This document shows, in pieces, positions 4,445 through 37,360 of a stretch of DNA of 64,000 bases (its first letter is position 1; every line of letters starts with the position of its first letter). Both the position numbers and the translations under genes were made by a program. The DNA lies in contig JAUYPJ010000080.1 in assembly GCA_030697665.1 (NCBI GenBank), forward strand, positions 5,475 through 69,474. The letters are read 5' to 3'. The notes beneath the pieces are model-generated. The model saw only the letters and a program-made list of their open reading frames with translations, ran no database searches and was not told where the DNA came from. The stretch comes from Candidatus Omnitrophota bacterium (GTDB taxonomy: Bacteria; Omnitrophota; Gorgyraeia; Aquiviventales; Aquiviventaceae).

Positions 4445-6210
4445 GGGAGAGGGCTGCTCAGTCCAGCCGAGCCGCGCTCGGAACAGCATGCCATCTGATT
4501 GTTTATCTGACGTTCTTGACTTGCCTGCCCCTTGCCCCCTTCCCCTTGCCCCCTGTTGTTGCTGCGGCATCGAGTGCTGAGCGCATCCCGCCTGACGCGC
4601 TGGCCACCCTGCGGCACGTGGCGATTCAGCACGCGGGGCGCCACAAGCCCTTCGACAGCTTCGCCCGCGAGACGCTCAAGCGCATCACGGGCCGCTTTCG
4701 ATTCCGCGATCAGGATCCGGTGGCAACGGTTCTCTCCATGGCGGCGGAGCCGGAGCGGTGGCAGGATGAGCCGATCCTCCACGTGCCGTCCGGCCCCTTG
4801 CAGGAAGCGCTGGGGCTTGAGCGGGGCGTCACGCGCGTCTCGTACAACAGCCTCATCGAGACCCGGCGCCTCATGCGGCTGCTGCCGCCGATCGTCGAGA
4901 AGCAGCGGCGCGATGAGAAGCTGTCGATGCGCGAGGAAGAGACGATGGATCTGTACGAGCGGTTCGTGTCGCTCAACAGCGTCTTCGAGCAGCGGCTGGA
5001 GCTTGTTCCCCCCGCCAAAGGCGGGGCGACCCAGTCCTGGCTGCCCATCCTCCAGCCGGCAGGCTATCCTGAGGGTCGGCAGGAGGTGTTGCGCAGCGCA
5101 TGGACCGCCTTCGTGACGGCGGTGCGCGAGCATCAGCCGCAGGCCATCAGCGCCTCCGCCCATGCGCTGGCGGATCTGCTCAGGAGCGCTCAGCCGGCCG
5201 CCTACCCCGCGCCGTGGCGACTTGGCGCGGAGGTGTGGTACAACCGGCTCAGCCCGTTTCAGGCGGCGCGGATGCTCTACCTCCTCGCCGCGCTGGGGCT
5301 CGTCTTCAGCCTGGGGGCCTGGCGGCGAGTCGTCCTCCTCGGCCGGACAGCCCTGTGGCTCGCGTTGCTCCTCCACGGGCTCGGCATCCTGACGCGCGTG
5401 ATTCTCGGCGGGCGTCCCCCGGTCTCGAATTTCTATGAGACGATGCTCTGGCTGCCGTTCGTCACGGTGGCGCTGGCGTTGGTGTTGGAGCGGATCCACC
5501 GGGCGCGCGCCGTGGCGCCGGCGGCCGCGGTCCTGGCGGGGGCCATTCTCTGGCTGGCGGACGTCCTCCCTCTTGATTCGAGCATCGTCCCCGTGGTGGC
5601 GGTGCTACGCAGCCACCTCTGGCTGACGATCCACGTGCTGACGATCGTCGCCAGTTACGGCGTGCTGACGTTGGCGACCGGCCTGGCGCACGTCTACGGC
5701 GGGCTGTACGTGGCGCGGCGCGGTGGGCATCCGACGCTGCGCCTCCTGGATGCGGTGCTGTATCGCGCCATCCAGGCCGGCGTCGTGCTCTTGGCCGCCG
5801 GCATCATGCTGGGGGCGGTGTGGGCGAACGCCTCCTGGGGGCGCTACTGGGGGTGGGACCCGAAAGAGACATGGGCGCTCATCACCTTGCTGTGGTTCCT
5901 GGCGATTCTTCACGGCCGCTTCGCCGGTTGGCTGCATGGCATTGGGGTGGCGCTGAGCACCATCGGCGGCTTCCTCCTGCTCTTGATGACCTACTACGGG
6001 GTGAGTTTCTACTTGGTGGGCCTGCACAGCTACGCCGGCGGGCATGCGACCCCGGTCCCGCCCCTCCTCATCGCCTTCCTCGTGGCGGAAGGCGCATTCG
6101 TCGGACTGGTCGGCGCGACGGCGCTGTCTAGGCGGCGGCATCAGCAGGTAACCCTTTTTGCGGACGCGGCGTCTAATAGGGTAGGAGAACAGAGGAGGAT
6201 GCCGCGATGA
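4441..6210 (+). CDS. ccsA: cytochrome c biogenesis (system II) heme-handling protein, CcsA/ResC type with N-terminal extension
   Basis: W-rich heme motif WANASWGRYWGWDPKETWA and multiple TM helices. The start ATGA overlaps the stop of the upstream SDR gene. Confidence 0.8.
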   Translation: MRERAAQSSRAALGTACHLIVYLTFLTCLPLAPFPLPPVVAAASSAERIPPDALATLRHVAIQHAGRHKPFDSFARETLKRITGRFRFRDQDPVATVLSMAAEPERWQDEPILHVPSGPLQEALGLERGVTRVSYNSLIETRRLMRLLPPIVEKQRRDEKLSMREEETMDLYERFVSLNSVFEQRLELVPPAKGGATQSWLPILQPAGYPEGRQEVLRSAWTAFVTAVREHQPQAISASAHALADLLRSAQPAAYPAPWRLGAEVWYNRLSPFQAARMLYLLAALGLVFSLGAWRRVVLLGRTALWLALLLHGLGILTRVILGGRPPVSNFYETMLWLPFVTVALALVLERIHRARAVAPAAAVLAGAILWLADVLPLDSSIVPVVAVLRSHLWLTIHVLTIVASYGVLTLATGLAHVYGGLYVARRGGHPTLRLLDAVLYRAIQAGVVLLAAGIMLGAVWANASWGRYWGWDPKETWALITLLWFLAILHGRFAGWLHGIGVALSTIGGFLLLLMTYYGVSFYLVGLHSYAGGHATPVPPLLIAFLVAEGAFVGLVGATALSRRRHQQVTLFADAASNRVGEQRRMPR

Positions 6211-6881
6211 AGACGGTCTGTGGTGTCGGAGGAGCCCTGATCGGGGCTGTGGTGTTGGGGGCTGTCGGGACGTGGCAGGGGATCGCGTGGGCCGAGCGCG
6301 AGCAGGGAGAAGCGGCCGACCCGGTTGAAGTGGTTGAGGGTACGCCGGCGGGGACGACGGCTGGCCCAGTCGTGGAGGAGGCCCAGCGCCTCCGACGGCT
6401 GAAGGAGGAAGATCCTGAGGCGTTCCACCGGGCGGTCCAGGAGCGCAAGGCGCAACTGCGCCAGCGGATGGCGCGCCTGAAGGAGACCGACCCCGAAGCG
6501 CATCAGTGGGCCAAGGAGCGTCTCAAGGCGCAGCGGCGCGAGTACCTGAGATCCTTTCGGGAACGCGACCCTGAGCGGTTTCGAGAGCTGACGCAGCGTC
6601 ACCGGGCCAAGGTGCAGGAGAAGCTGGCGCACATGAAGGAGCACAACCCGGAGCGCTACGAGGCGTTGATGCGGCAGCGGCAGACGTGGCGGCAGCAGCG
6701 GCTTGAGGAGTTCAAGCAGAGTCACCCCGAAGCGGTCGAGCGGTTCAAGGCGAACCACCCTGAGTGGTCGGCGCGTCACCCGGAGCATCGTCGGGACAAG
6801 GCGCATGTCGATCACGGGGTCCGTGACCACGGGCAGGGCGTCGGCCGCGGCAAGGGACAGGGTGGCGAGCACCGACGGTAG
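6207..6881 (+). CDS. secreted charged repeat protein (about 7 repeats of a D/N/H-P-E motif in helical heptad-like context)
   Basis: N-terminal hydrophobic signal/anchor. DPEAF, DPEAH, DPERF, NPERY, HPEAV, HPEW and HPEH are spaced about 15-25 aa apart. Sits directly upstream of the ECF sigma gene. Confidence 0.6.
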   Translation: MKTVCGVGGALIGAVVLGAVGTWQGIAWAEREQGEAADPVEVVEGTPAGTTAGPVVEEAQRLRRLKEEDPEAFHRAVQERKAQLRQRMARLKETDPEAHQWAKERLKAQRREYLRSFRERDPERFRELTQRHRAKVQEKLAHMKEHNPERYEALMRQRQTWRQQRLEEFKQSHPEAVERFKANHPEWSARHPEHRRDKAHVDHGVRDHGQGVGRGKGQGGEHRR

Positions 6882-6892
6882 CCTTGTCGTAG

Positions 6893-7492
6893 ATGCCGGA
6901 TGAGTCGGGGATCATTCGCGCCGTCCTGGATGGGCAGCCGGACCGCTACGCGGAGTTGGTGGACCGATACCAGGGCCGAGCGATCCGGCTGGCGTTCAGC
7001 TTGTTGGGAAACGACGACGACGCCAGGGAGACCTCTCAGGAAGCGTTCCTGAAGGCGTACCGCTCCCTGGGCCGGTTTCGGGGCGAGGCGGCCTTCTCCA
7101 CATGGCTCTTCCGGATCGTGATCAACGAGTGTCGCAGTCGCTGGCGACGTCGGGCCAGAGAGCCGGTCGCGACGGCGCGCATCGGCGGCTCACCTGCCGC
7201 CGATGAGGAGAGCGAAGGGTCGCTCTTCGTGGATCCTGAGGATCCCGGCGCCGATCCCGCCGAGCAGCTTGCGCAACGAGAGCTGGCGCGGCGGCTCAGC
7301 CGTGAGATCGCGCGGCTGCCGATGCAACAGCGCATCGCGTTTGTGTCGCACCACCTCCACGGCTGTTCGCTGGAGGAGACCGCCGCAGTCATGCGCCGCC
7401 GCGTCGGGACGGTGAAATCCCACCTCTTCCGCGCCACGGAGCGCCTCCGGCGCACGCTGGGGCCGTGGCTGACACAGGAGCAACAGGAATGA
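6893..7492 (+). CDS. RNA polymerase ECF-type sigma-70 factor
   Basis: Region 2 (FSTWLFRIVINECRSRWRR) and region 4 (SLEETAAVMRRRVGTVKSHLFRA) signatures. Confidence 0.9.
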   Translation: MPDESGIIRAVLDGQPDRYAELVDRYQGRAIRLAFSLLGNDDDARETSQEAFLKAYRSLGRFRGEAAFSTWLFRIVINECRSRWRRRAREPVATARIGGSPAADEESEGSLFVDPEDPGADPAEQLAQRELARRLSREIARLPMQQRIAFVSHHLHGCSLEETAAVMRRRVGTVKSHLFRATERLRRTLGPWLTQEQQE

Positions 7493-26951: not shown

Positions 26952-27305
26952 TTACGGTGGGGAGCCGGGGTCTCTCGGCGCCAGGGTCTCCAAGGTGGGC
27001 AGGAGACGAGGGATGTCGATCGTCGCGGTCTTCCAGACCTCTTCAAGATCGACTTCATCGTAGGCATGAATCAGCTTGTCGCGCATCCCGGCCATGAGTG
27101 TCCAGGGAATCGCGGAATGGTGGGCCCGAAACGCGTCCGACAGCCGCTTCGCGGCTTCGCCGAAGATCAGGAGCTGGTGGAGGATGGCGGACTGGGTCTT
27201 GAGGTCGGTCAGGAAGGCGGGCTTCTCAAGGTTGCTTCGGAACTCTACGACCAACCGGGCGGCTCGGACGAGGTCCAGCACGCTCGCCTGGTCATTGCGC
27301 GACAT
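26952..27305 (-). CDS. hepT: HepT-type HEPN toxin (DUF86)
   Basis: R-x4-H motif in MRDKLIHAY. Overlaps mntA by 14 nt. Confidence 0.8.
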   Translation of the reverse strand: MSRNDQASVLDLVRAARLVVEFRSNLEKPAFLTDLKTQSAILHQLLIFGEAAKRLSDAFRAHHSAIPWTLMAGMRDKLIHAYDEVDLEEVWKTATIDIPRLLPTLETLAPRDPGSPP

Positions 27306-27600
27306 AGTAGGGCTTGGCACTGTCCAGAATGGCCCGGCGGCGAATCCAGTTGGGACTGCGCTCAATCGCGCGCCGGCTCACGAGCTCGACCTTGCGGCCC
27401 AGCAGCGCGCTCAACTCCGCTTCCATCTGGAGATGGTCCAAGAGGCCCCAGTTCGCCTCCGGCGCGAAGCTGACCAGGACATCCACATCGCTGCTGGGCC
27501 CGAAGTCCTCCCGGAGGACGGAGCCGAAGAAGTCCAGCTCGCGGACCTTCCAGCGCTGACAGAGCTCAGCAAGCTGTGTCTCGTCCACTGCAATGCGCAT
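27292..27600 (-). CDS. mntA: MntA-type nucleotidyltransferase antitoxin
   Basis: FGSVLREDFGPSSDVDVLV matches the GS-x10-DxD minimal nucleotidyltransferase motif. Confidence 0.8.
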   Translation of the reverse strand: MRIAVDETQLAELCQRWKVRELDFFGSVLREDFGPSSDVDVLVSFAPEANWGLLDHLQMEAELSALLGRKVELVSRRAIERSPNWIRRRAILDSAKPYYVAQ

Positions 27601-27770
27601 CTTCAACCTCTCCCTCGCCCCCCTAGCGTACCATCCCAAGAATCCAAAAACAAGCACACGAAGCGCACCAGGGCGATCTCCGGGTGGGTTGTGAGATAGG
27701 CCGCCACGGTGCGCAGGGCACTGTGGAGCCAACGATTTACTCAGTCAATTGAGTCAATTGTCTCCTCGAC

Positions 27771-27890
27771 GAACGTCCTCTGCGTCGCCGTGCCGCTGTC
27801 GCTTTGATCCTGCGCTCCCCCTCAACGTGTCCCTTCGAACCCGGTACGGCCACCGTGCAGACTACAGGACGAAGGGGGGTTGCGACAGAC
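27771..27890. repeat. copy A of about 100-nt composite repeat (block Y 27771-27809, block X 27825-27849, degenerate tail)
   Basis: Y = gaacgtcctctgcgtcgccgtgccgctgtcgctttgatc and X = acgtgtcccttcgaacccggtacgg. Both recur at 29567-29707. Confidence 0.8.
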
Positions 27891-27899
27891 GCTGGACGG

Positions 27900-28217
27900 T
27901 TAGGCGTGAGCGTAGCGGGGTGCCCGCTGCCTGATCTTGATGACGAGTTCCCCGTTGAGGGCTTCGACGACTTTCAGGAGCGTATCGAGCGTGAAGTTGT
28001 GCGTCTCGGCGCGTTCCAGCTTGGCAATGAACGGCTGGTTCACCTTCAAGCGCTTGGCCAGGGCAGCTTGCGTGAGGCCCTGCCGCTGCCGTAAGCCCAC
28101 GAGGGCCTCCACCAGCCGCAGCTTGTGCAGCTCCTCCTCGTACCCCTGGCGGAAGCCGGGCCGCTTGAGCAGCCGATGCACAACCTCCCGATGGGGGATG
28201 GCCCGTACGTTCTTCAT
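27900..28217 (-). CDS. HigA-like XRE-family antitoxin
   Basis: GLTQAALAKRLKVNQPFIAKLE HTH. ATG at 28215-28217. Confidence 0.7.
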   Translation of the reverse strand: MKNVRAIPHREVVHRLLKRPGFRQGYEEELHKLRLVEALVGLRQRQGLTQAALAKRLKVNQPFIAKLERAETHNFTLDTLLKVVEALNGELVIKIRQRAPRYAHA

Positions 28218-28332
28218 CGCTGATGTAGGCGAACGCCTTTTGTTGGTCATCCTGGCCCAGCGCCAACAGGAACGCCAAGGCCGGGGCTTCGCCCCTGGCA
28301 TCGGGGTAGTAGAAGACGGGTTTGCCAGCCAT
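28218..28332 (-). pseudogene. truncated Gp49/HigB-like toxin stub
   Basis: MAGKPVFYYPDARGEAPALAFLLALGQDDQQKAFAYI resembles only the first 35-40 aa of RelE/Gp49-type toxins. The frame then runs into the antitoxin gene. Confidence 0.4.
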
Positions 28333-28356
28333 ACAGAGTATATAACCTACAAGTTA

Positions 28357-29460
28357 TTGAGTCCTGCATAAACAATGGAACATCCTGACCGGTTCCGCGA
28401 TCATGGGAGGCATGCGACCTCCTGGCAGCCCCAGCCAGCTGGAGCGGCGTCGCCGACGCGCCCTCGAGCTGCTGAAGAGGGGCCTGACGCAGTCGGCAGT
28501 GGCGGAGCAGCTCGGCTGCGCCAAGAGCTCGGTGTCCCGCTGGCATCACACCTTCGAGCGGGCGGGGCCCAAGGGGCTGGCGCCCAAGCCGATTCCCGGC
28601 CGCCCGTCCAAGCTCTCCAGCGCTCAGAAGCAGCGCCTGGTGCGGCGGTTGGTGAACGGCCCCATGGCCTGTGGCTATGGGACCGACCTCTGGACATTGC
28701 CCCGCATTGCCGACCAGATCGCCCGCCAGTTCCACGTCCGCTATCACCCCGCCCATGTCTGGCGGCTCTTGCGCGGGCTGGGGTGGAGCTGCCAGAAGCC
28801 GGAGCGCCGAGCGCTGCAACGGAACGAAGCCGCCATCGCCTACTGGCGGCGGGCCGTCTGGCCGCAGCTAAAAAAAGGCTCAACGGCTGGGCGCCCACCT
28901 CGTCTTCCTCGACGAGAGCGGGTTCTCGCTTACTCCCACGGTCAAGCGGACCTGGGCACCCCAAGGCCAAACGCCGTACCTCTACCATATGTTCAAGCGC
29001 GACAAGTTCTCCGCCATCAGCGCCCTCACGGTCTCGCCCCGGCACCGCCATCTGGGGCTCTATCTCCGTCTGGCCACCAACCGAGCCTTCACCGGCCTGG
29101 ATGTCCGTGCCTTCCTCCGGGCTCTGCTGCGGCATCTGCGGGGGGCGGTGGTCCTGCTGTGGGACCGCGGCACCATTCACACGCGGCGGGCGGTCCAGGT
29201 CTATCTGGCGGCCCATCCCCGGGTGGCCCCCTACGACTTCCCGCCCTATGCCCCAGAGCTTAACCCGGCCGAGCATATCTGGAACCAGGCCGATGCGGCC
29301 CTGGCCAACGGCGCCCCGCTGCACCTGGCGCAGCTGCGCGGGAGGCTCCGGCGGACCACCCACAGGCTCCGCCGCTCGCCACGACTCCTGTGGGCGTGCA
29401 TCGAGGCGTCCGACCTGCCGTGGGAACCCTGAGATGTTCCATTATTTATACAATTCTCAA
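28357..29460 (+). mobile_element. IS630-family insertion sequence with TA target duplication
   Basis: TIRs are TTGAGTCCTGCATAAACAATGGAACATC (left) and TTGAGAATTGTATAAATAATGGAACATC (right, reverse complement). TA flanks at 28355-28356 and 29461-29462. Confidence 0.85.
28403..29432 (+). CDS. IS630-family DDE transposase, split in two frames at an A7 run
   Basis: The N-terminal HTH part is in frame 28403. The DDE part (FLDESG, WDRGTIH, PPYAPELNPAEHIW) is in the frame of ORF 28989..29432. The frames join only if one A of 28870-28876 is skipped. Confidence 0.8.
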
Positions 29461-29566
29461 TATTTCGTCAAGACCACCCGCAATCCGATTCACCCGTTTC
29501 CGTGAACCTGAGGCGTTCCAAACGAGCTAGCTCCCGCGGCGTTGATTTGCCCATCCAGGAAAATCA

Positions 29567-29707
29567 GCGTGGGGCGACAGCTCAGATCAGCTAGGAACGT
29601 GTCCCTTCGGAACCCGGTACGGGTCTTTCCCTACTTCCCTGTCCGCCGAAGGCGGAAACAGCCTCCGCGAACGTCCTCTGCGTGGCGGTGCCACTGGCGC
29701 TTTGATC
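29567..29707. repeat. copy B of about 100-nt composite repeat (degenerate Y, X 29597-29622, spacer hairpin, Y 29669-29707)
   Basis: X = acgtgtcccttcggaacccggtacgg and Y = gaacgtcctctgcgtggcggtgccactggcgctttgatc. The spacer contains the gtccgccgaaggcggaaac hairpin. Confidence 0.8.
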
Positions 29708-29771: not shown

Positions 29772-30734
29772 TTATAAGCCAAAACTTGTAAAAGGTGGTC
29801 TCCTGCCTGTGAAGATATTCCTTACAGTATCAAGGTTGTGCCCGAGCTTCTCGCTCTTTTTAGTCACCAATTCCGTTGTGCTGGAGAGCTCTTCTGAATC
29901 TGCCATCAGGTTAACAATTTTGTATCGCCTTGTATGTGGAGGAACCGAAACGATGACAACATCTCCCGTCTTCGTCGTATACAAAGGAATCTGATACTTG
30001 TGGAGAAGCTCTCGTATCTCGGGTTTAGGATGCTCAAACTGACTGTCATAATTTGATGAGGCAATCGCTACTGATGGCTGTACGCTTCGAAGGAAGGCGC
30101 TTGTTGTAAAACCGTTATCGGCTCCGTGGTGCGCGAGGATCATAATATCCACTTCCTCGCGGAAAGCCCGATGATTCCTTAAATACGAGCTTATCCCAAC
30201 ATCCTCTACATCTCCTAGACTGGCTATATTGAAGCATCCAGTGCGGAATAGTTTCACTGTCGAGTTATTATTAGAATCCTCCGACAGGTATTTAGGATGG
30301 TAGAAGATATCGTGATAACCCCAACTCTCAGCAGGCTCCAAAGATTTGATATACGGTGGGTCCACACGCTGTACCACGCAGGCAGGGTTGCGTTCCTTAA
30401 AGCTTAAAATCCTTCCAAGGCATTTCTCAGCAGTCTCCGTGTGCGGAGGATAACCTGGATATTCGATTTTGGCTGGATTTAACTTCGCTAGGGTCTCCTC
30501 GAGGTCGACTTCAGCACAATGGTCGGCATCCCAGCTTGTTATGTGGAGGCAGCCAATTTTGTTTACCCCACATGCTCGTAGTTCTGCCTGCAAGGTTCGC
30601 CGATTCACATCGTTAAGGCGAGCTTCTATTAGAGTGAACCGAAAACCGTCAAAATAACTGAAGGAAGATCCCTCGCATCCAAGCTGGTATGCTCTGAATC
30701 TGGTGTGCTTTGCCTGTAACCCCGTTCTCATCAT
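29772..30734 (-). CDS. metallo-beta-lactamase-fold hydrolase, ComEC/Rec2-like subtype
   Basis: HITSWDADHC, SLGDVE and LAHHGADNG metal-ligand motifs. AT-richer island. Last gene of the minus-strand array. Confidence 0.8.
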   Translation of the reverse strand: MMRTGLQAKHTRFRAYQLGCEGSSFSYFDGFRFTLIEARLNDVNRRTLQAELRACGVNKIGCLHITSWDADHCAEVDLEETLAKLNPAKIEYPGYPPHTETAEKCLGRILSFKERNPACVVQRVDPPYIKSLEPAESWGYHDIFYHPKYLSEDSNNNSTVKLFRTGCFNIASLGDVEDVGISSYLRNHRAFREEVDIMILAHHGADNGFTTSAFLRSVQPSVAIASSNYDSQFEHPKPEIRELLHKYQIPLYTTKTGDVVIVSVPPHTRRYKIVNLMADSEELSSTTELVTKKSEKLGHNLDTVRNIFTGRRPPFTSFGL

Positions 30735-30840
30735 ATTACTTTGTCTTTAGTGATGGCAGAAGACGTTCCTCTTCGTGTCGTCTAAAGTCCCTACCTGGTA
30801 CGTGGGGGGGGACGCCTCCGGTTTTCCGAACCGTGACAGC

Positions 30841-31479
30841 TCATTTTGCATGCGATTCCTCTGTCAAGACGTTTAAGACAAAGCGCGTCCCGTAGTTGCG
30901 TGCTGATGTGGAAAGGATTAAATATTGAGCGATGAGGGTAGCTCCGTAGAGGGCTACGATCTTCAAGCTGGCCAGCGCCACGAAAATACCGATGGAAAAC
31001 AGCACGGCGAAAACTGCTGATAGCGCCGTCATGTCACGGGTCAATAGGTATGCCCTGTGCGCCTCGATCACCGTCACGCTTTCGGTGTGCTTCTTGTAGA
31101 GTTGATACCAAAGGGCATTCTGTTCCTTCGGATCCTCCGGAAACCGACCACATTTCGTTTTCAAAACCTTGACAGCAATCCGGGGATCTGTACCCATGAG
31201 CTTCGAAAAAGCACGGCAGCCGGGTAAGGGGTTCTGCCAGCGCCAGAAAACGAGTCGGGCCTTTGCCAGATCACCGAGAAAGCCGTTCAAGACGACGGCG
31301 GCCAGTGGCATGCAGATTGTAGCAAGTCCGTCTTTCGCGGATACGCGTTGCCAGAAGTGCTCAATGGATGAACTGGTCAATTGCTTGCTCACGGATACCG
31401 AAAGAAACACCGCGAAGTTGACCCCGATAAAAATCCAGAGTCGCCAGGCGTTCTTGCTTTTTAGATATTCTTGTCCCAT
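30841..31479 (-). CDS. four-TM membrane protein, unknown family
   Basis: 212 aa from ATG 31477-31479. Layout is 2 TM, about 85 aa of basic soluble segment, then 2 TM. Starts 16 nt downstream of the upstream MBL gene. Confidence 0.6.
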   Translation of the reverse strand: MGQEYLKSKNAWRLWIFIGVNFAVFLSVSVSKQLTSSSIEHFWQRVSAKDGLATICMPLAAVVLNGFLGDLAKARLVFWRWQNPLPGCRAFSKLMGTDPRIAVKVLKTKCGRFPEDPKEQNALWYQLYKKHTESVTVIEAHRAYLLTRDMTALSAVFAVLFSIGIFVALASLKIVALYGATLIAQYLILSTSARNYGTRFVLNVLTEESHAK

Positions 31480-31495
31480 TGCGATATCATCCGGT

Positions 31496-32590
31496 TCACT
31501 CCTCGACCTCGCTATAGAACGGTAAAGGTGTTGATGTAGTCCAGCCGCGGTCGGGCGCATTGTTTCGCTGACATTTTGTTTGACCCGCTGTAGCATGAAC
31601 AGGAGCGCCGCGCCGCAGAAACGCATTTGTGACTTTCTTTGCCGGGTGCTTAGGTGCCCCGTCAGGGGAGACGGAAACAAAGGCCGTCTTAAGTTTGTTT
31701 TCCGAGGACAATTTGTTGCCTATAAGTACGTTGAGAAGCGTCGGCCCGATATTCCTTTGGCTTCCATGATGAGGAACTTGAACGAAATTGAGCTTTGAGA
31801 AATCGAAACCCTCTTGCTGAAGCCGTGACACCGCCTCGGTGAAAGCTGGAATGCCAGCATCACCTGTAAAAAGCATGGAATGGTCACCGATGGTGAAAAG
31901 AAGGATAGCGCTAGAATTATTCTCTGCGGATGTCTCGCCGGAATCATCTAGCGTTTCAAATCCCCAACTCTCAGCAATTTTCTTGACGGTCTCTTTCGCC
32001 TCTTTCATAAATTGCGCAAGAGGGCTAAGTCCTTGTTTGGGTTCTGGCGTCCCTCGATAGCCGGGCAAGAGTTGTTTGTAGAAATCTTCCGATGGCCCAA
32101 GGACGCGCATGACCTTGTTGTAACCGTGTACACCCCAAAACGGTTCAACGATCTTGATGCCTTTCTGCTTGGCGATTGTCTCAAGGGTTCGGACTGTCTC
32201 AAGGGATTCGCGCAAAGCCTTCTTGACGCTTTCATCGGTAACGCGGCTGTCCTCAAAGAGGTGGGAGATGTCGTCCGTGTGGTTCCAAGGTTGGTGCATC
32301 ATCAGATGGGCAACCTTCATTTCGTTCAAAACCACCTCAAGACCGGATGCGTGGTCGTTGTCGGGGTGGGTAGAGATGACGACATCAACATGGTCTGTCT
32401 TGTAGTATTTCTGGATATGTGAGACCAAGGTTTTGCCCGAATCCTGAAAACCGCCATCGATCACAAAGACCGTTTGCTGCGGCGGATCTGCCAAGAGGTT
32501 ACCAAATCGTAACGCAATAGCGTCTCCAGACTTTTCGCCTTCGCCGACAGGCAGGAAGTCAACTTCATAGCCGATGTGGTTCGTGTTCAT
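31496..32590 (-). CDS. metallo-beta-lactamase-fold hydrolase, ComEC/Rec2-like subtype
   Basis: ISTHPDNDHASG, FTGDAG and VPHHGS motifs. The start overlaps the S-subunit stop (ATGA 32587-32590). Confidence 0.8.
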   Translation of the reverse strand: MNTNHIGYEVDFLPVGEGEKSGDAIALRFGNLLADPPQQTVFVIDGGFQDSGKTLVSHIQKYYKTDHVDVVISTHPDNDHASGLEVVLNEMKVAHLMMHQPWNHTDDISHLFEDSRVTDESVKKALRESLETVRTLETIAKQKGIKIVEPFWGVHGYNKVMRVLGPSEDFYKQLLPGYRGTPEPKQGLSPLAQFMKEAKETVKKIAESWGFETLDDSGETSAENNSSAILLFTIGDHSMLFTGDAGIPAFTEAVSRLQQEGFDFSKLNFVQVPHHGSQRNIGPTLLNVLIGNKLSSENKLKTAFVSVSPDGAPKHPAKKVTNAFLRRGAPVHATAGQTKCQRNNAPDRGWTTSTPLPFYSEVEE

Positions 32591-33987
32591 ACTTTGGCTT
32601 TCCGCCCGTCGCCAGCAATGCTTGATTCAACAAGCCGTTTGGCTTCCTCAAGTTTCGCCCGGGCTTCGACCTTCGCGCGGGCTGCTATTCGTACCTTGTC
32701 CGCGAGCTTCCTTTGCCACCCAAGGTCAACCCTTCCGTTGCTGTTTTTGGGAACGTAGATCAGAAATTGCTGGATGTGTGCCGGGTAGAGGTGCAATTGC
32801 CCGGATGACCCCGTTTGATACTGTTCGCTTTGTGCGATACCCACCGACGAGTTTAGGAAGAGCGACAGGTAGTCAGGATCGACAAGCTCCGGCTTAGCGC
32901 GAAGAATCAGCAGGTCAACGGAAGCGACAATCTTTTGACCATTGCAGTGAATCACGCCAGCACGGCCAAGCGTCCCCCTACCTGTCGAGTTGATGACCAC
33001 ATCGTTTTCCTTCAACCGGGCGAATTCATCCGCCCAGGCCCGCAATGAAGTCCGCTCACAAGAAGCAAGTTCAATGCCTCGGCCGAACACATTCTTGCTT
33101 TTAACCACGATGACTTCACCCTCCTCCACGTATTCGTCGGGTTGCGTACCCTTACCGGGCGGCATGGCCAGTAGTTCCTCCAATGGAATCGCGCCGAACT
33201 TCTCTAGCCGCTTGGCAAGGCGGTCGTACTTGGGTTGATAGTGCTCGGCGTCAATCCGCTCGCGTTCGGTGAGAGTCTTAAAGTCCTCCGTGTAGTAGAG
33301 TTCACAAGGTTTCTCGCCCAGTTCCTTCCATCCGATTCGTTCAAGAAGTTCCGCTTCAGCTTTGGGGTACTGCTCCACAGAAATTGAATCAAGTCGGTCG
33401 ATTTCTGAGAACAATTTTCGGCACTTGTCCTCAATATGAGATAAATCAGGAAGGTAAAGGGTTCTCAGCGAAAAGCCGTTAAGTTGTCCATGGGTCCCGC
33501 CAGTTTTTAGACTCAATAAAACACGACGCCCAATATCCGACGCAAAGAAAGCACTCAGAGCAAATATCGGTGTGCGCGGCTTAGGTACAAGCCGCAAAGT
33601 ATGGGAGCTGACGAGTGCTCCACTGTGTGCCTTGGGGACTCTTGCAGCATCGGCTAAATTCGCCCCTGTTCTGACAAGGAGAAGGTCGTCTTCTTGCGCT
33701 ACCGCTTCGGGTAATGCGTTGTAGATTGCATCAGAGACAAAAACCGGTGACTCAACTTTAATCTGTCCTGGTCTTACGTTTTGTGCTCGTAGGAACAAGT
33801 GCCCAGCAGCCTCGTAAGTACGTGTGAATTCCCCAGGATGGATGATCCGCGCAAACCAATGGTCAAAGGGCTTGCCGGTTTTCTTGAAACCTTCGCGGTC
33901 TTTAGCCCCTTCGCCGATGTAGTAGTCCGGATCGAAGCGTAGGTCCTGGGGAAACAAGTCGAATTGCGCCTGACCGATGATCGCCAT
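32587..33987 (-). CDS. restriction-modification specificity (S) subunit with two target-recognition domains
   Basis: 466 aa with an internally duplicated architecture, a central helix (CRKLFSEIDRL) and a C-terminal helix (KVEARAKLEEAKRLVE). TAATG overlap with the methylase gene. Confidence 0.85.
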   Translation of the reverse strand: MAIIGQAQFDLFPQDLRFDPDYYIGEGAKDREGFKKTGKPFDHWFARIIHPGEFTRTYEAAGHLFLRAQNVRPGQIKVESPVFVSDAIYNALPEAVAQEDDLLLVRTGANLADAARVPKAHSGALVSSHTLRLVPKPRTPIFALSAFFASDIGRRVLLSLKTGGTHGQLNGFSLRTLYLPDLSHIEDKCRKLFSEIDRLDSISVEQYPKAEAELLERIGWKELGEKPCELYYTEDFKTLTERERIDAEHYQPKYDRLAKRLEKFGAIPLEELLAMPPGKGTQPDEYVEEGEVIVVKSKNVFGRGIELASCERTSLRAWADEFARLKENDVVINSTGRGTLGRAGVIHCNGQKIVASVDLLILRAKPELVDPDYLSLFLNSSVGIAQSEQYQTGSSGQLHLYPAHIQQFLIYVPKNSNGRVDLGWQRKLADKVRIAARAKVEARAKLEEAKRLVESSIAGDGRKAKV

Positions 33988-35978
33988 TATTCAGTTCTCA
34001 AGAACGCAAGGCCTTGTTCTTTGCCCCACTTGACGAACGCCTCGGCGATCTCGTCGAGGTCATGGTCAATCGCCGGGGATTTGCCGGACTGCGTGATGGG
34101 CGTTCCGCCTTCATCCACGATGTGGCCTGCAACGGTCTTATAAACATATTCGCCGCCGTTGTCCTTCCCACTCTTTTGACTCGTCGCCATGAAGACAGGA
34201 TAACTCTTGATCGGTCCCCCGGATTTCCCACCCCATTTTTGAAGGAAAACAACGCTCGTTTTCGTACCCGTGAATGGTTTGAAGGTGTTCACGTGTAGGC
34301 CGACCACGGCCAGCAGGCGGGCGCGGTTGTCGATGTAGGCGCGAAGGCCGCGCGTGCCGAGGTTGTTCAGGTTGCCTTGGGGCAGCACGATCGCCATACG
34401 GCCACCCGGTTTCAGGAAGTCGAGGCACCTTTCCACGAACAGAATGTCGCGCTTCATGCCTGCCACTTTGCGCGCAGCTCTCTTTTTCCCGTTGTCCTCA
34501 CCGGTTTCGTCTTCCCAGTTCTCCTCCTCATCCTTCAACGCCCCGGTCATGGCGAGCTCGTACAGGTCAAAGGCAGCAAGCTGAGTCTTGCCTGTGACCT
34601 TTCCAGCAAACGGCGGATTCGTCAGCACCACGTCAAAGTCGCCATCGCGCACGTTCTTGGAAAATTCGCCGATGGCTCTGGCGGTACCGTTCTGCCACTC
34701 GCGCACATCAAGGGAATTGACGCAATGGACATTCGCCTTCCCGTCCCCGGCAATGATCATCATGGTCTTGGCCACCTTCTTCAACCGGTCGTCGAAGTCG
34801 ACAGCGTACAGGTGCTCGTTGGCATACCTGTAGAGCTGCTCGCGACTCCAGCCGTACAGTGTTTGGACGTGCCGGATCGTGTGAATGAGGAACCCACACG
34901 AGCCGCAAGCTGGGTCAATCACCTTCTCGCCATCCTGTGGGTTGAGCATCTTGACCGCCATTTTGACCACGGGGCGCGGCGTGAAGTATTGGCCTTTCTG
35001 CCCTTTCTGTTCGGGATTGATCAAGTATTCAAAGGCGGCGTCCACCACCTCAAGATCGGTGCGGGCCAGGGTGAACGGTTCAATGGCGCTTGCACAGAGT
35101 TTCAGGGCGTCGCCTTGGAGTTTGAGCTTTTCGCCTTCATCAAAAATCTCGCCCCAGTGAGGTCGTTGTTTGGCCGCCTGGAACAGGTCATTGAACCGTC
35201 GGGAGACATCTTCAGGGGATCCGACAGGAACGCGGAACTCAACTGGATCTGTGGGCTTCGTCTTCGGTTGAAACTCGTCGTGTAGCTTGGCAAAGAATAG
35301 TTTGAACAGCTCATCGAACGCATTGACGCCTGCGTTTGCCAGGGCATCGTGCTCCAGTTGTTCAATCAGGGCGCGCAGATCCGGCACCGGCTGAAGCTCG
35401 GCGTACGTCAACGGCTTGAGGATGTCTTTCAAATCCTCGCCTAGCTTCGGCAACCGAGAAATGGTGCGGTATTTATAGGGGGCTTTCTTGGTGGTCTTGT
35501 CTTCCTCACGGAGTTGGAAGCTGTACTCGTTCCCGTTTGACCAGCCACCGAAAAAGCAACCCGTCCAGTTCAAATAACTTCGGAGCTGCTCAAGACCTTC
35601 TTTCGATTCCGGCTTCTTGAGCTCGAAGAGCATGTACGGATCGGTGCACGCGTGATCACTGAACACGGCGATATCGGCTCGTTCCTTCTCAGCCGCTTCA
35701 CCCATTTGCACCGGCCATTCGACTTGGATGCGGGTGAGTGGGTAGCGCAGCGTTTCTTGAATCCAGACGAGGAACAGTTGACGGACTACCTCCTCCGGTC
35801 TGGCGCGGAGCCACCTCTGGCGCTTAGCGCACCAGATTTCGTTTTTGTCCTCCCCGATCTCACGGAGCTTGACCTTGTTCCGCTCACCTCTCGTGAAAAA
35901 CTTTAAACCTTGTTTCGTGTTTGGATCGCCGAAAATACGATCAAGAAGTTCATGCTGCGTTGAAGATCTCATGTCCAC
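33987..35978 (-). CDS. N6-adenine DNA methyltransferase fused to N-terminal HSDR_N-type PD-(D/E)xK nuclease domain (BcgI-A-like)
   Basis: ADIAVF-x17-LFELKKP nuclease core. Motif I VIDPACGSCGFL and motif IV VLTNPPFAG. Confidence 0.85.
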   Translation of the reverse strand: MDMRSSTQHELLDRIFGDPNTKQGLKFFTRGERNKVKLREIGEDKNEIWCAKRQRWLRARPEEVVRQLFLVWIQETLRYPLTRIQVEWPVQMGEAAEKERADIAVFSDHACTDPYMLFELKKPESKEGLEQLRSYLNWTGCFFGGWSNGNEYSFQLREEDKTTKKAPYKYRTISRLPKLGEDLKDILKPLTYAELQPVPDLRALIEQLEHDALANAGVNAFDELFKLFFAKLHDEFQPKTKPTDPVEFRVPVGSPEDVSRRFNDLFQAAKQRPHWGEIFDEGEKLKLQGDALKLCASAIEPFTLARTDLEVVDAAFEYLINPEQKGQKGQYFTPRPVVKMAVKMLNPQDGEKVIDPACGSCGFLIHTIRHVQTLYGWSREQLYRYANEHLYAVDFDDRLKKVAKTMMIIAGDGKANVHCVNSLDVREWQNGTARAIGEFSKNVRDGDFDVVLTNPPFAGKVTGKTQLAAFDLYELAMTGALKDEEENWEDETGEDNGKKRAARKVAGMKRDILFVERCLDFLKPGGRMAIVLPQGNLNNLGTRGLRAYIDNRARLLAVVGLHVNTFKPFTGTKTSVVFLQKWGGKSGGPIKSYPVFMATSQKSGKDNGGEYVYKTVAGHIVDEGGTPITQSGKSPAIDHDLDEIAEAFVKWGKEQGLAFLRTE

Positions 35979-36018
35979 CTCCGCAACTCTTGCTCTCTGT
36001 CGTCTACACCCATCCGCT

Positions 36019-36642
36019 CTAACTCACCGATGGGATGACTCTTACCACGACCCCCTGGATGGAGAGATCCTGGTTGAGCACGATCGGTTGATGCGCGGGG
36101 TTGCTTGATCTTGGCTTGAGCAAGATCAGGTCAGCGGTTCTATGGAATTCTTTAATCGTGGCTTCTCCGTCAACAAGAGCGACGACCCAATCACCGTTTC
36201 TCGCCGTGACCTGCTGGCGCACCAGAACGAGGTCCTGATCTTTGATCCCCTTTTGGTCCATCGAGTCACCCTTCGCGCGTAGCATGAAGTACCGGTGGGG
36301 TGGACGCGCCACATCCGTCGAAACGCGTAGAGCGGCCTCGATATTTTCCTCCGCTAACATGGGGGTCCCGCACGCGACCGTTCCTACCAGAGGCACATCA
36401 ACCGTTCGAGCGCCGGCCAGTGCGTTTTCTGAGCTCCTCACGATCTGAAGGCCGCCGTTCTCCCGACGCCTCACCAGTTTCAGATCCATCAAGCGACTGA
36501 TAATGAGGGCGGCGGACCGCGGAGACTTATAGCCTAACGCTCCCATCAATTCCCGCACCGAAGGCGCGCGTCCTTTGTGGACCAGCCCGTTGCGGATATG
36601 GCGAAGCGCAGCGAGCTCTTTGTTCGAAAGCCGGCGTTTCAT
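36019..36642 (-). CDS. LexA-like S24 peptidase repressor (island-borne paralog)
   Basis: N-terminal winged HTH (PSVRELMGALGYKSPRSAALIISRL), cleavage-site-like VACG, Ser nucleophile in KGDSM and Lys in ATIKEF. AT-richer than host lexA. Confidence 0.85.
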   Translation of the reverse strand: MKRRLSNKELAALRHIRNGLVHKGRAPSVRELMGALGYKSPRSAALIISRLMDLKLVRRRENGGLQIVRSSENALAGARTVDVPLVGTVACGTPMLAEENIEAALRVSTDVARPPHRYFMLRAKGDSMDQKGIKDQDLVLVRQQVTARNGDWVVALVDGEATIKEFHRTADLILLKPRSSNPAHQPIVLNQDLSIQGVVVRVIPSVS

Positions 36643-36654
36643 TGAATACGATAT

Positions 36655-36669
36655 TATACGGATCGTATA
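36655..36669. promoter_or_regulatory. candidate operator: perfect palindrome TATACG-gat-CGTATA (plus extra half-site ATACGAT at 36647-36653)
   Basis: Read directly, 13-27 nt upstream of the island LexA-like start codon. Confidence 0.4.
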
Positions 36670-36709
36670 TTTGATGTCAAGGTTCTTTCAGCTTGCCGTC
36701 CAGACGCCT

Positions 36710-36725
36710 GTTGAGTATAGTTGAG
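36710..36725. promoter_or_regulatory. direct repeat GTTGAG-tata-GTTGAG immediately upstream of lexA ATG (candidate SOS box)
   Basis: Read directly. Its position suggests autoregulation. The LexA-box consensus of this lineage is unknown to me. Confidence 0.3.
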
Positions 36726-36727
36726 CC

Positions 36728-37360
36728 ATGACAAAACAGTTGACCAAGCGCCAGCACACCGTGCTGGAGATCATCCGCAGTTGGATCAGGGAACGCGGCT
36801 ACCCTCCCACCATCCGCGAGCTGGGCAGCCGGTTGGGGATCAAGAGCCTGCGGGGGGTGACCACCCATCTCGATGCCATCGCCAAAAAGGGGTTTCTGAA
36901 GCGGGAGCCCAAGGCGCGCAGCATCAGCCTCCAGGAGCTGGTCGCGCCGTTTGAGCGGGCGATGCGCATTCCCATTATCGGAAGGATCAGGGCGGGGCAG
37001 CCGCTGTTGGCGCAGGAGCAGGTGGAAGATCACGTGGTCATCGATGGGGCGTGGGTTGGAGCGACGAAGGACCCCGCCGCCCCGGAGCACTTTGCGCTCA
37101 AGATCCAGGGCGACAGCATGATCAACGCCGGGATCCTGGACGGCGATTTTGTGATCGTGCGCCAACAGCCGGTGGTGCAGGATGGGGAGATCGTCGTCGC
37201 GCTCCTGGGGGATGAGGCGACGGTCAAACGGTTTTTCAAAGAAGAAGATCGCATCCGGCTTCAGCCGGAGCACCCCACGATGGAGCCTATCCTCGTCGAG
37301 AAGTCCCAGCCGATGACGGTGTTGGGCAAGGTCGTGGCGGTCTTTCGTCAGTTGGCCTGA
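36728..37360 (+). CDS. lexA: LexA repressor
   Basis: LTKRQHTVLEIIRSWIRERGYPPTIRELG, AG cleavage site in RIRAGQPLLA, QGDSM and ATVKRF. Confidence 0.9.
   Translation: MTKQLTKRQHTVLEIIRSWIRERGYPPTIRELGSRLGIKSLRGVTTHLDAIAKKGFLKREPKARSISLQELVAPFERAMRIPIIGRIRAGQPLLAQEQVEDHVVIDGAWVGATKDPAAPEHFALKIQGDSMINAGILDGDFVIVRQQPVVQDGEIVVALLGDEATVKRFFKEEDRIRLQPEHPTMEPILVEKSQPMTVLGKVVAVFRQLA

Follow-up and report, generated by a model that had tools for sequence, protein, structure and literature searches.

Six closely packed genes of unlike kinds, headed by a LexA-type repressor and a restriction-modification (RM) pair and ending in two proteins of the metallo-β-lactamase (MBL) fold with a membrane protein between them, raise the question of whether such an array is a single defence system or a chain of parts acquired independently. 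The array lies in contig JAUYPJ010000080.1 (assembly GCA_030697665.1) of a metagenome-assembled genome labelled Candidatus Omnitrophota; the window, that is, the whole stretch of DNA that was analysed, comprises 64,000 nucleotides (positions 5,475 to 69,474 of the forward strand of the contig), and window coordinates are used throughout. The answer favoured here, with a probability of roughly two in three, is that a composite defence operon has been put together, in a variable hotspot next to a chromosomal lexA gene, from three separately mobile modules: a LexA paralogue with a Type IIB-like RM subunit and its specificity (S) subunit; a cassette of an MBL protein (MBL1) and a protein with four transmembrane helices (4-TM, its gene being abbreviated TM); and MBL2, a second ComEC-like MBL from a different family. 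The features on which this reading depends are as follows.

36653-36680, minus strand: array promoter, TTGACA and TATAAT separated by a 16-nt spacer, 12 of 12 consensus positions matched
36655-36669, no strand assigned: putative operator, palindrome TATACG-N3-CGTATA, overlapping the -10 hexamer
36019-36642, minus strand: LexA paralogue, 207 aa, by Pfam (LexA_DNA_bind, Peptidase_S24) and TIGR00498
33987-35978, minus strand: Type IIB-like RM subunit, 663 aa, by Pfam (HSDR_N_2, N6_Mtase); probable start at ATG 35972
32587-33987, minus strand: S subunit, 466 aa, with two target-recognition domains (TRDs), by PADLOC Specificity_I
32627-32639, minus strand: recombination junction, 13-nt microhomology AACGGCTTGTTGA, located by four-way alignment
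30841-32639, minus strand: mobile MBL1-TM cassette (49-nt leader, MBL1, TM), delimited by blastn in relatives
31496-32590, minus strand: MBL1, 364 aa, ComEC-like MBL-fold hydrolase, by PADLOC (PDLC04676) and Pfam (Lactamase_B)
30841-31479, minus strand: 4-TM protein, 212 aa from its ATG, by hydropathy, alignments and an AlphaFold2 (AF2) model
30735-30840, minus strand: 106-nt spacer between the cassette and MBL2, scanned for promoter, terminator and operator, none convincing
29772-30734, minus strand: MBL2, 320 aa, ComEC-like MBL-fold protein, by PADLOC, NCBIfam and structure comparison

The layout set out in the original prediction, which had been made from the letters and open reading frames (ORFs) alone, was verified in all its coordinates and junctions. 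The ORF list confirms six co-directional minus-strand ORFs between 29772 and 36642, with 40 nt between the LexA-like stop and the start of the RM subunit gene, a TAATG overlap of the RM and S genes at 33987, an ATGA overlap of S and MBL1 at 32587-32590, and gaps of 16 nt from MBL1 to TM and 106 nt from TM to MBL2. The block is also AT-richer than its surroundings, as had been noticed: GC is 0.47-0.58 (47-58%) over approximately 29.7-36.5 kb, compared with 0.63-0.72 in both flanks. The domain calls of all six proteins stand (Pfam, PADLOC, NCBIfam, hydropathy, structure comparison); Pfam profiles recovered the S24, nuclease, N6_Mtase and, for MBL1, Lactamase_B assignments, and MBL2 has no Pfam match. 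One detail shifts: the methylase ORF is as described, but a start at 35978 is less likely than one at ATG 35972, which has GGAGG 5 nt upstream. In a search for island borders no tRNA was found in the window, and an Rfam scan gave no meaningful match.

The modular structure of the array emerges from comparison with related loci (designated by numbers with the prefix L). L107, a sister contig that shares the flanking genes, among them the divergent lexA, and is 86-89% identical in nucleotide sequence, carries the LexA-like gene, the RM subunit gene and the S gene, and then passes directly into DNA matching 27.5, 27.0 and 25.9-24.1 kb of the window; it has neither MBL1, TM and MBL2 nor the IS630 element and HigBA-like genes that lie to the left of the array. 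In five unrelated contigs that carry MBL1-TM (L048, L049, L050, L051 and L081), blastn homology covers exactly 32639-30841, beginning 49 nt ahead of the MBL1 start codon and ending with the stop codon of TM. A four-way alignment locates the join between these two kinds of DNA: the window follows L107 up to the 13-mer AACGGCTTGTTGA and from there follows the cassette leader of L081 and L049; L107 has the 13-mer at the 3' end of S, and L081 and L049 have it in the leader of MBL1-TM. Downstream of it the S frame continues across the leader and stops at a TGA overlapping the start codon of MBL1, and the last ~13 codons of S are derived from the leader. The original prediction had taken this overlap for translational coupling and hence for the mark of one functional unit; on the alignment it is instead an insertion scar, the ATGA having arisen when the cassette recombined into the last S codons at the 13-nt microhomology. 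About 45 nt that precede the 13-mer in both L081 and L049 are missing from the window, so that the cassette, having lost its upstream region on insertion, would now depend on transcription from upstream.

The same cassette is found by itself elsewhere. In most other loci that pair an MBL1-type gene with TM, the two stand alone, only the pair is conserved, and often it lies between genes of the opposite strand. With cassette limits that are exact in five other contigs and a pair that mostly stands alone elsewhere, the notion of a single six-gene unit was not borne out. The third module is separate again: in blastn comparisons no close relative has MBL2, or the 106-nt spacer before it, linked to the MBL1-TM cassette at the nucleotide level.

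What holds the modules together in the window would be transcription from the LexA end. The paralogue scores 150.4 bits against the TIGR00498 cutoff of 110.95, with the winged-helix LexA_DNA_bind domain at its N-terminus and the Peptidase_S24 autopeptidase at its C-terminus; the Ser/Lys dyad (S127 and K164) is invariant in the family alignment, and the self-cleavage site reads VACG, a Cys-Gly site like that of UmuD. It is 93% identical to its counterpart in L107, 51% to that of L081, 58-68% to annotated LexA proteins of Omnitrophica, Elusimicrobia and Scalindua, and 29% to the divergent lexA at 36728. A promoter scan restricted to sigma-70 consensus sites found the array promoter as the sole 12/12 match in 29.3-36.9 kb; L107 has kept it too, and as only 10 nt separate its end from the LexA-like ATG, the mRNA would be effectively leaderless. 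The scan of the same interval gave no convincing internal promoter or terminator, and terminator-like matches were at background level. The palindrome TATACG-N3-CGTATA is perfect and, at up to two mismatches, unique in the window, with no further copies upstream of MBL1, TM or MBL2. In L107 its arms are kept and its spacer differs; the same palindrome precedes the homologous lexA of L110 at the same position, and related GTATA-type palindromes precede the lexA genes of L111 and L081. The earlier description of the repressor as LexA-like is thus well founded; by its sequence it is a LexA-type protein capable of self-cleavage, and it stands behind the only consensus promoter of the region with a conserved putative operator. 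It is plausible that the paralogue binds this putative operator and is cleaved in a manner dependent on activated RecA. The array is probably co-transcribed as one operon, and damage-inducible (SOS-type) co-transcription of the whole is likewise plausible because of the single promoter, the conserved operator arms, the Ser/Lys dyad with the Cys-Gly site, and the occurrence of related regulators elsewhere.

Two lexA genes diverge from the 85-nt spacer 36643-36727, the second occupying 36728-37360 and being preceded by a promoter-like site with its end 7 nt from the ATG; in L107 an insertion lengthens the spacer by 35 nt. To call the second gene the host lexA, as the original prediction did, is reasonable, yet both genes pass NCBI's LexA model (217 bits for the second, 150 for the first).

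Arrays headed by a LexA-like gene are found in other loci with different contents: two methyltransferase genes, HNH, MBL1 and TM in L081; DUF2188, a 4-TM-like protein, an MBL and a methyltransferase in L108; TM and MBL1 in L035. Related MBL/TM/patatin operons carry at the regulator position either a CapH/CapP-like pair (an MqsA-type helix-turn-helix protein and an M78 protease) or a WYL/BrxR protein; CapH/CapP and CapW/BrxR are damage-responsive regulators of defence. Another parallel is the mobile SOS cassette lexA2-imuA-imuB-dnaE2, in which, as in the window, a horizontally mobile operon begins with a second LexA that regulates itself, although in the window the regulation is predicted from sequence and the cargo consists of restriction and MBL/TM genes rather than translesion polymerases. 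For these comparisons see also bioRxiv 10.1101/2022.04.27.489752.

The alternative that survives best, possible but less likely than not to be the whole account, is that the lexA paralogue is an ordinary SOS repressor whose downstream side serves as an integration hotspot, any co-transcription being incidental and each module having an unrecognised control of its own. In L111 a member of the same LexA family (60% identity), its promoter and operator laid out in the same way, lies among the housekeeping genes for trigger factor, ClpP and purA, with DpnI and KilA-N genes just downstream, and comparison of the window with L107 shows repeated gain and loss of toxin-antitoxin (TA) modules, IS630 and the triad (MBL1, TM and MBL2) in the same interval. 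Incidental co-transcription is harder to reconcile with the distance of only 5-40 nt after the LexA-like stop in the window and L107, with the strong Shine-Dalgarno sequence before the RM gene and the lack of a terminator-like site in the 40-nt gap, with the loss of the upstream region of the cassette on insertion, and with the recurrence of a LexA-like head in five independent defence arrays.

The neighbourhood itself offers several further observations. At 7001-9667 of L111, the lexA gene is followed in the same direction by a small ORF and by genes for a methyl-dependent restriction enzyme of the DpnI family and a KilA-N protein. Just to the left of the array in the window are an MNT/HepT-like TA pair (26952-27732), a HigBA-like pair (27862-28332) and an IS630-family element (28355-29462) with 30-nt terminal inverted repeats, of which the transposase is split into overlapping ORFs (28403-29263 and 28989-29432) and is either frameshifted or subject to programmed frameshifting. 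In L107 just two short fragments of the MNT/HepT genes remain (4819-5062), which marks the interval from the lexA-RM unit to the gene for a PDZ protein as a hotspot of rapid change. Two repeats, one of 46 nt (87% identity) and one of 27 nt (one 1-nt indel), are present at 27764-27854 and again at 29596-29707; they flank the HigBA-like genes and IS630 in swapped order (A-B and B-A) and do not flank the six genes. With two copies only in the window and none in the 112 fetched loci, they may stem from an old duplication or represent an att-like remnant.

The RM subunit combines a PD-(D/E)xK nuclease, with a visible D...ELK motif (HSDR_N_2, residues 61-161), and a gamma-class N6-adenine methyltransferase (N6_Mtase, residues 311-583) on one chain. 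Its nearest solved structure is RM.BsaXI (8w0p, 1e-21), its best PADLOC match is the Type I methyltransferase family MTase_I (7e-141, end to end), and it is 92% identical to its counterpart in L107 at the amino acid level. The S subunit matches Specificity_I (1e-25), and only its C-terminal 364 aa align with the S subunit of L107. The first TRD is wholly different in the two (window 33370-33987, L107 3190-3776) and the second half is 80% identical, which looks like a TRD swap and would imply different recognition sequences. None of the six proteins contains a helicase or ResIII domain (Pfam), and there is no HsdR motor subunit. As in BcgI and BsaXI, a fused nuclease-methyltransferase subunit is joined by a separate two-TRD S subunit, and the BcgI-like reading of the pair as an ordinary Type IIB-like system stands as a prediction from these features; the pair, which as a Type IIB enzyme would cut on both sides of its recognition site, differs from those enzymes in having a LexA-type repressor, not a C protein, ahead of it and in that PADLOC files both proteins under Type I M and S. 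Membership of the MADS system was considered, MAD2 and MAD5 being the best NCBIfam matches of the RM and S proteins, and was rejected since these scores are far below the curated cutoffs (306 of 720 bits and 108 of 400 bits) and the other four proteins have no mad match (PADLOC, NCBIfam).

An older idea is that the six genes make up one dedicated, co-evolved, SOS- or infection-inducible Type IIB system that needs the MBL/TM/MBL triad as a second-line effector. The tight packing behind a single consensus promoter without a clear terminator would suit it, as would L081, in which a LexA-like gene is again followed by methylase and nuclease genes and then by MBL1-TM, L108, in which it precedes a TM-like protein, an MBL and a methyltransferase, and L024, which combines MmeI, a helicase, T5orf172, TM and MBL1. 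It is nevertheless improbable, for the RM types of the window, L081 and L024 are wholly different, neither RM nor LexA genes adjoin most MBL1-TM cassettes, L107 lacks the triad but has the LexA-like gene with RM and S, MBL2 is unlinked to MBL1-TM in every close relative, and the S/MBL1 overlap is accounted for by the insertion junction.

In the composite reading the second module has to be identified in its own right. MBL1 has the ComEC-like motifs THPDNDH and VPHHGS, and residues 8-364 match positions 5-357 of the 357-position PADLOC profile PDLC04676 for PDC-M48B (5e-94); the L081 orthologue also matches PDC-M48B end to end. Weaker PADLOC matches are to LmuA, RTasMBL and Avs1a, the MBL effectors of Lamassu, DRT and Avs1, and the nearest PDB entry is the MBL domain of ComEC (9ic4). 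The ComEC model TIGR00361 gives 46 and 38 bits against a cutoff of 190, for the MBL part only; competence and OB domains of ComEC were not detected in the array proteins, and the TM protein has no Competence-domain match (Pfam, NCBIfam). The original prediction had not recognised the combination as a named system. A PADLOC comparison now places MBL1 in the named PDC-M48B, over its full length, and to that extent the triad is no longer without a name, an outcome that the original prediction had listed among those refuting it; yet PDC-M48 is a PADLOC candidate for which the literature library searched gave no publication, and the TM partner matches no model. PDC-M48 consists of a small membrane protein (A) and an MBL-fold protein (B), and the window resembles it in the full-length match to component B and in the position of the MBL gene directly beside the gene for a multi-pass membrane protein. 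The differences are that the 4-TM protein belongs to another family of membrane proteins than PDC-M48A and that a second MBL of another family follows. The PDC-M48A models do act as models of small membrane proteins, since they match weakly the 4-TM partner of an MBL2-family protein in L090. Judged by these comparisons, MBL1-TM is a PDC-M48-type pair with a membrane partner from a new family that is shared with 6A-MBL loci.

This family, to which the 4-TM protein belongs, is uncatalogued, being new to the domain and defence libraries. Neither Pfam nor PADLOC nor NCBIfam has a model that matches the 4-TM protein of the window; with PADLOC there is no match even at an E-value of 10, nine tested relatives have none, five relatives have none at an E-value of 1, and an NCBIfam scan of diverse homologues for a hidden family name was empty. 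Homologues are nevertheless well conserved and number in the hundreds, a profile search having returned 1367 clusters at 50% identity, almost all of 205-225 aa, a length that fits the 212-aa ATG start and confirms it. Hydropathy and alignments give two transmembrane helices, a conserved loop of ~75 aa, two more helices and a tail; the loop, which would be cytoplasmic, carries the motifs WxNPLPGCRAF, DPRID and HRxYLLTRD, and the tail ARNYGxRFV. The AF2 model has a predicted local distance difference test score (pLDDT) of 86, and Foldseek searches of the PDB and BFVD returned nothing below an E-value of 1. There was no match in sequenced phages. Homology to the 4-TM proteins that accompany MBL2-family genes in L086 and L090 was considered and rejected (hhalign 0.2-1.3%), the topology alone being alike.

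The genes of this family keep close company with MBL genes. In a survey of 43 genome loci, 38 metagenome loci and several plasmids, 41 of the 42 non-redundant loci with sufficient flanks have an MBL-fold gene no farther than 2.6 kb from TM, and 37 of all 79 non-redundant loci have one no farther than 150 nt away. Three contexts recur: A, an MBL1-type gene and TM in variable order; B, genes for E2, an E2-like protein, E1, JAB and a 280-aa MBL, followed by TM; and C, genes for a 390-aa MBL and a 760-aa E2-E1-JAB fusion, followed by TM. Context C passes the NCBIfam cutoffs for 6A-MBL (cap2_3 599 against 320 bits; MBL 426 against 220 bits in L029). In sister 6A-MBL operons (L086, L102 and pGOX1), a patatin phospholipase replaces TM at the equivalent position. 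Protein P0397 (594 aa) is a fusion of a CHAT caspase-like protease domain to a full-length 4-TM family domain, the only clear domain fusion among the top 150 representatives of the family. The exchange with patatin and the CHAT fusion are the reasons for reading the 4-TM protein, by analogy, as a possible membrane effector or platform. The distribution of the 4-TM and MBL genes is patchy and mobile, on plasmids and in islands, and the recurrence beside RM and other defence genes that the original prediction had anticipated was found: MmeI, HerA/UvrD, DndB/DUF499, AAA_15, BrxR and the CapH/CapP-like pair are among the neighbours, and L024 holds MmeI, helicase, T5orf172, TM and MBL1 genes together.

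6A-MBL corresponds to "row 6a", an E2-E1-JAB fusion with an MBL in an operon of "usually two genes" (Iyer et al. 2006), and has been named and tested in P. aeruginosa according to PMC13276650 and bioRxiv 10.1101/2025.09.30.679545. The same 4-TM family is encoded directly downstream of cutoff-passing 6A-MBL genes in at least 17 genome loci and many metagenome loci, and occurs also with the split E2/E1/JAB versions and in Polaromonas pPNAP01; MBL2-family genes, for their part, flank 6A-MBL and patatin operons. No NCBIfam model matches the TM protein, and two papers on ubiquitin systems were silent on MBL or TM partners. The array itself was rejected as a 6A-MBL member: none of the six proteins has an E2, E1/ThiF or JAB domain (Pfam, NCBIfam), no cap2_3 protein is present, MBL1 scores 38.7 bits against the cutoff of 220 for the 6A-MBL enzyme model NF058524, and MBL2 does not match that model. 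Two plasmids deserve mention: in pPNAP01 of Polaromonas naphthalenivorans (L116), TM is the fourth gene after those for an MBL, a ThiF-family fusion and a 269-aa protein, and in pCuR of Xanthomonas citri (L115) a TM gene lies beside a WYL regulator gene that adjoins an operon of row-6a type. Both species are in the original "row 6a" list.

MBL2, the third module, is recognised as an MBL-fold protein by PADLOC and NCBIfam, and its AF2 model (pLDDT 84.6) has the ComEC MBL domain 9ic4 as its best fold match (E-value 4e-17). It belongs to a family of ~320 aa, separate from that of MBL1 and a third MBL family in the same network of neighbourhoods, with the motifs H-x3-WDADH and AHHGAD; of its 1438 homologues, many are named "competence protein ComEC" by JGI, and NCBI's own call of the window gene is truncated to 273 aa (P0121). 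The family lacks the first His of the classical HxHxDH, reading TSWDADH, and has an invariant His four residues upstream; the context-B MBLs (GFDSDH) have lost the same His. Members typically adjoin a second, different MBL and a membrane-directed partner, which is an unrelated 4-TM protein in L086 and L090, patatin in L088, L103 and L105, and patatin with 6A-MBL in L086, L102 and pGOX1. In L088, a P2-like prophage of Aeromonas piscicola, patatin and an MBL2-family gene form a two-gene insert (4847-6960) between the P2 replication gene and ogr/portal, an interval that is a known hotspot of prophage defence genes; neither protein matches a PADLOC model. Against sequenced phages, MBL2 matched only comEC fragments at the ends of prophages. 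L098 holds all three families of the triad, a TM protein (38% identity), an MBL2-family protein (50%) and a PDC-M48B-type MBL, in an order that differs from that of the window and with a 4-nt overlap that involves the MBL2-family gene, and L002 has MBL1, TM and a 274-aa MBL. The triad is thus partly a unit: two different MBLs with a membrane partner recur, but in the window they were assembled from separate pieces.

That the triad is instead a non-immune apparatus for ComEC-like DNA uptake or for turnover of membrane phosphodiesters, placed in an island by chance, is very improbable: the nearest solved structures are indeed the ComEC MBL domain and the phosphorylcholine esterase Pce, and the JGI name of many MBL2 homologues agrees with uptake, but the competence and OB domains of ComEC were not detected (Pfam), MBL1 is a full-length PDC-M48B resembling the MBL effectors of Lamassu, DRT and Avs, the TM family is present in validated 6A-MBL anti-phage loci, the neighbours include RM, BrxR, patatin, HerA and a P2 prophage hotspot, and the genes are distributed patchily on plasmids and in islands.

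Some observations nevertheless count against the composite defence operon as favoured here. Because PDC-M48 is an unpublished candidate, a defensive role of MBL1-TM would be suggested by context and by the relation to 6A-MBL, and the TM protein of the window does not match the PDC-M48A models. In other lineages, as in L111, this LexA family seems to supply the ordinary housekeeping LexA, and defence genes may therefore have landed downstream of lexA with no selection for coupled regulation. A promoter of a kind that the scan does not recognise could lie in the 106-nt spacer before MBL2, and the fold matches of MBL2 that rank next are to phosphorylcholine esterases and not to nucleases.

If the composite operon works as its parts suggest, the LexA paralogue would repress its own promoter and with it all the genes reached by read-through, and DNA damage or phage replication would raise their expression through RecA-stimulated self-cleavage of LexA. 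A cytoplasmic MBL phosphodiesterase or nuclease might then dock on the conserved loop and tail of the 4-TM protein, which would be a membrane effector or anchor equivalent to the patatin of sister operons, and the two together may provide an abortive-infection or DNA-degrading second layer behind restriction.

A wider reading is offered tentatively: that the 4-TM protein is the missing membrane effector or platform of an MBL-immune clade comprising PDC-M48-like pairs, two-MBL triads and the fused and split forms of 6A-MBL, that it is interchangeable with patatin and sometimes fused to CHAT, and that a lineage-specific LexA with the TATACG-N3-CGTATA operator has been recruited repeatedly, placing such cassettes and RM genes under SOS control. 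If true, this would amount to damage-licensed layered immunity. For the locus at hand, the start-stop overlap with the S gene records the insertion of a cassette and not a shared function, which corrects a tempting inference. The 4-TM family, with approximately 1,400 clusters at 50% identity that the libraries do not recognise and an MBL-fold neighbour that is nearly constant, is a candidate addition to the tools for finding defence genes, and its presence in validated 6A-MBL loci means that work on the mechanism of 6A-MBL should consider the 4-TM protein. A LexA paralogue at the head of restriction and effector genes presents a testable case, for which the window and L107 form a natural pair with and without the triad.

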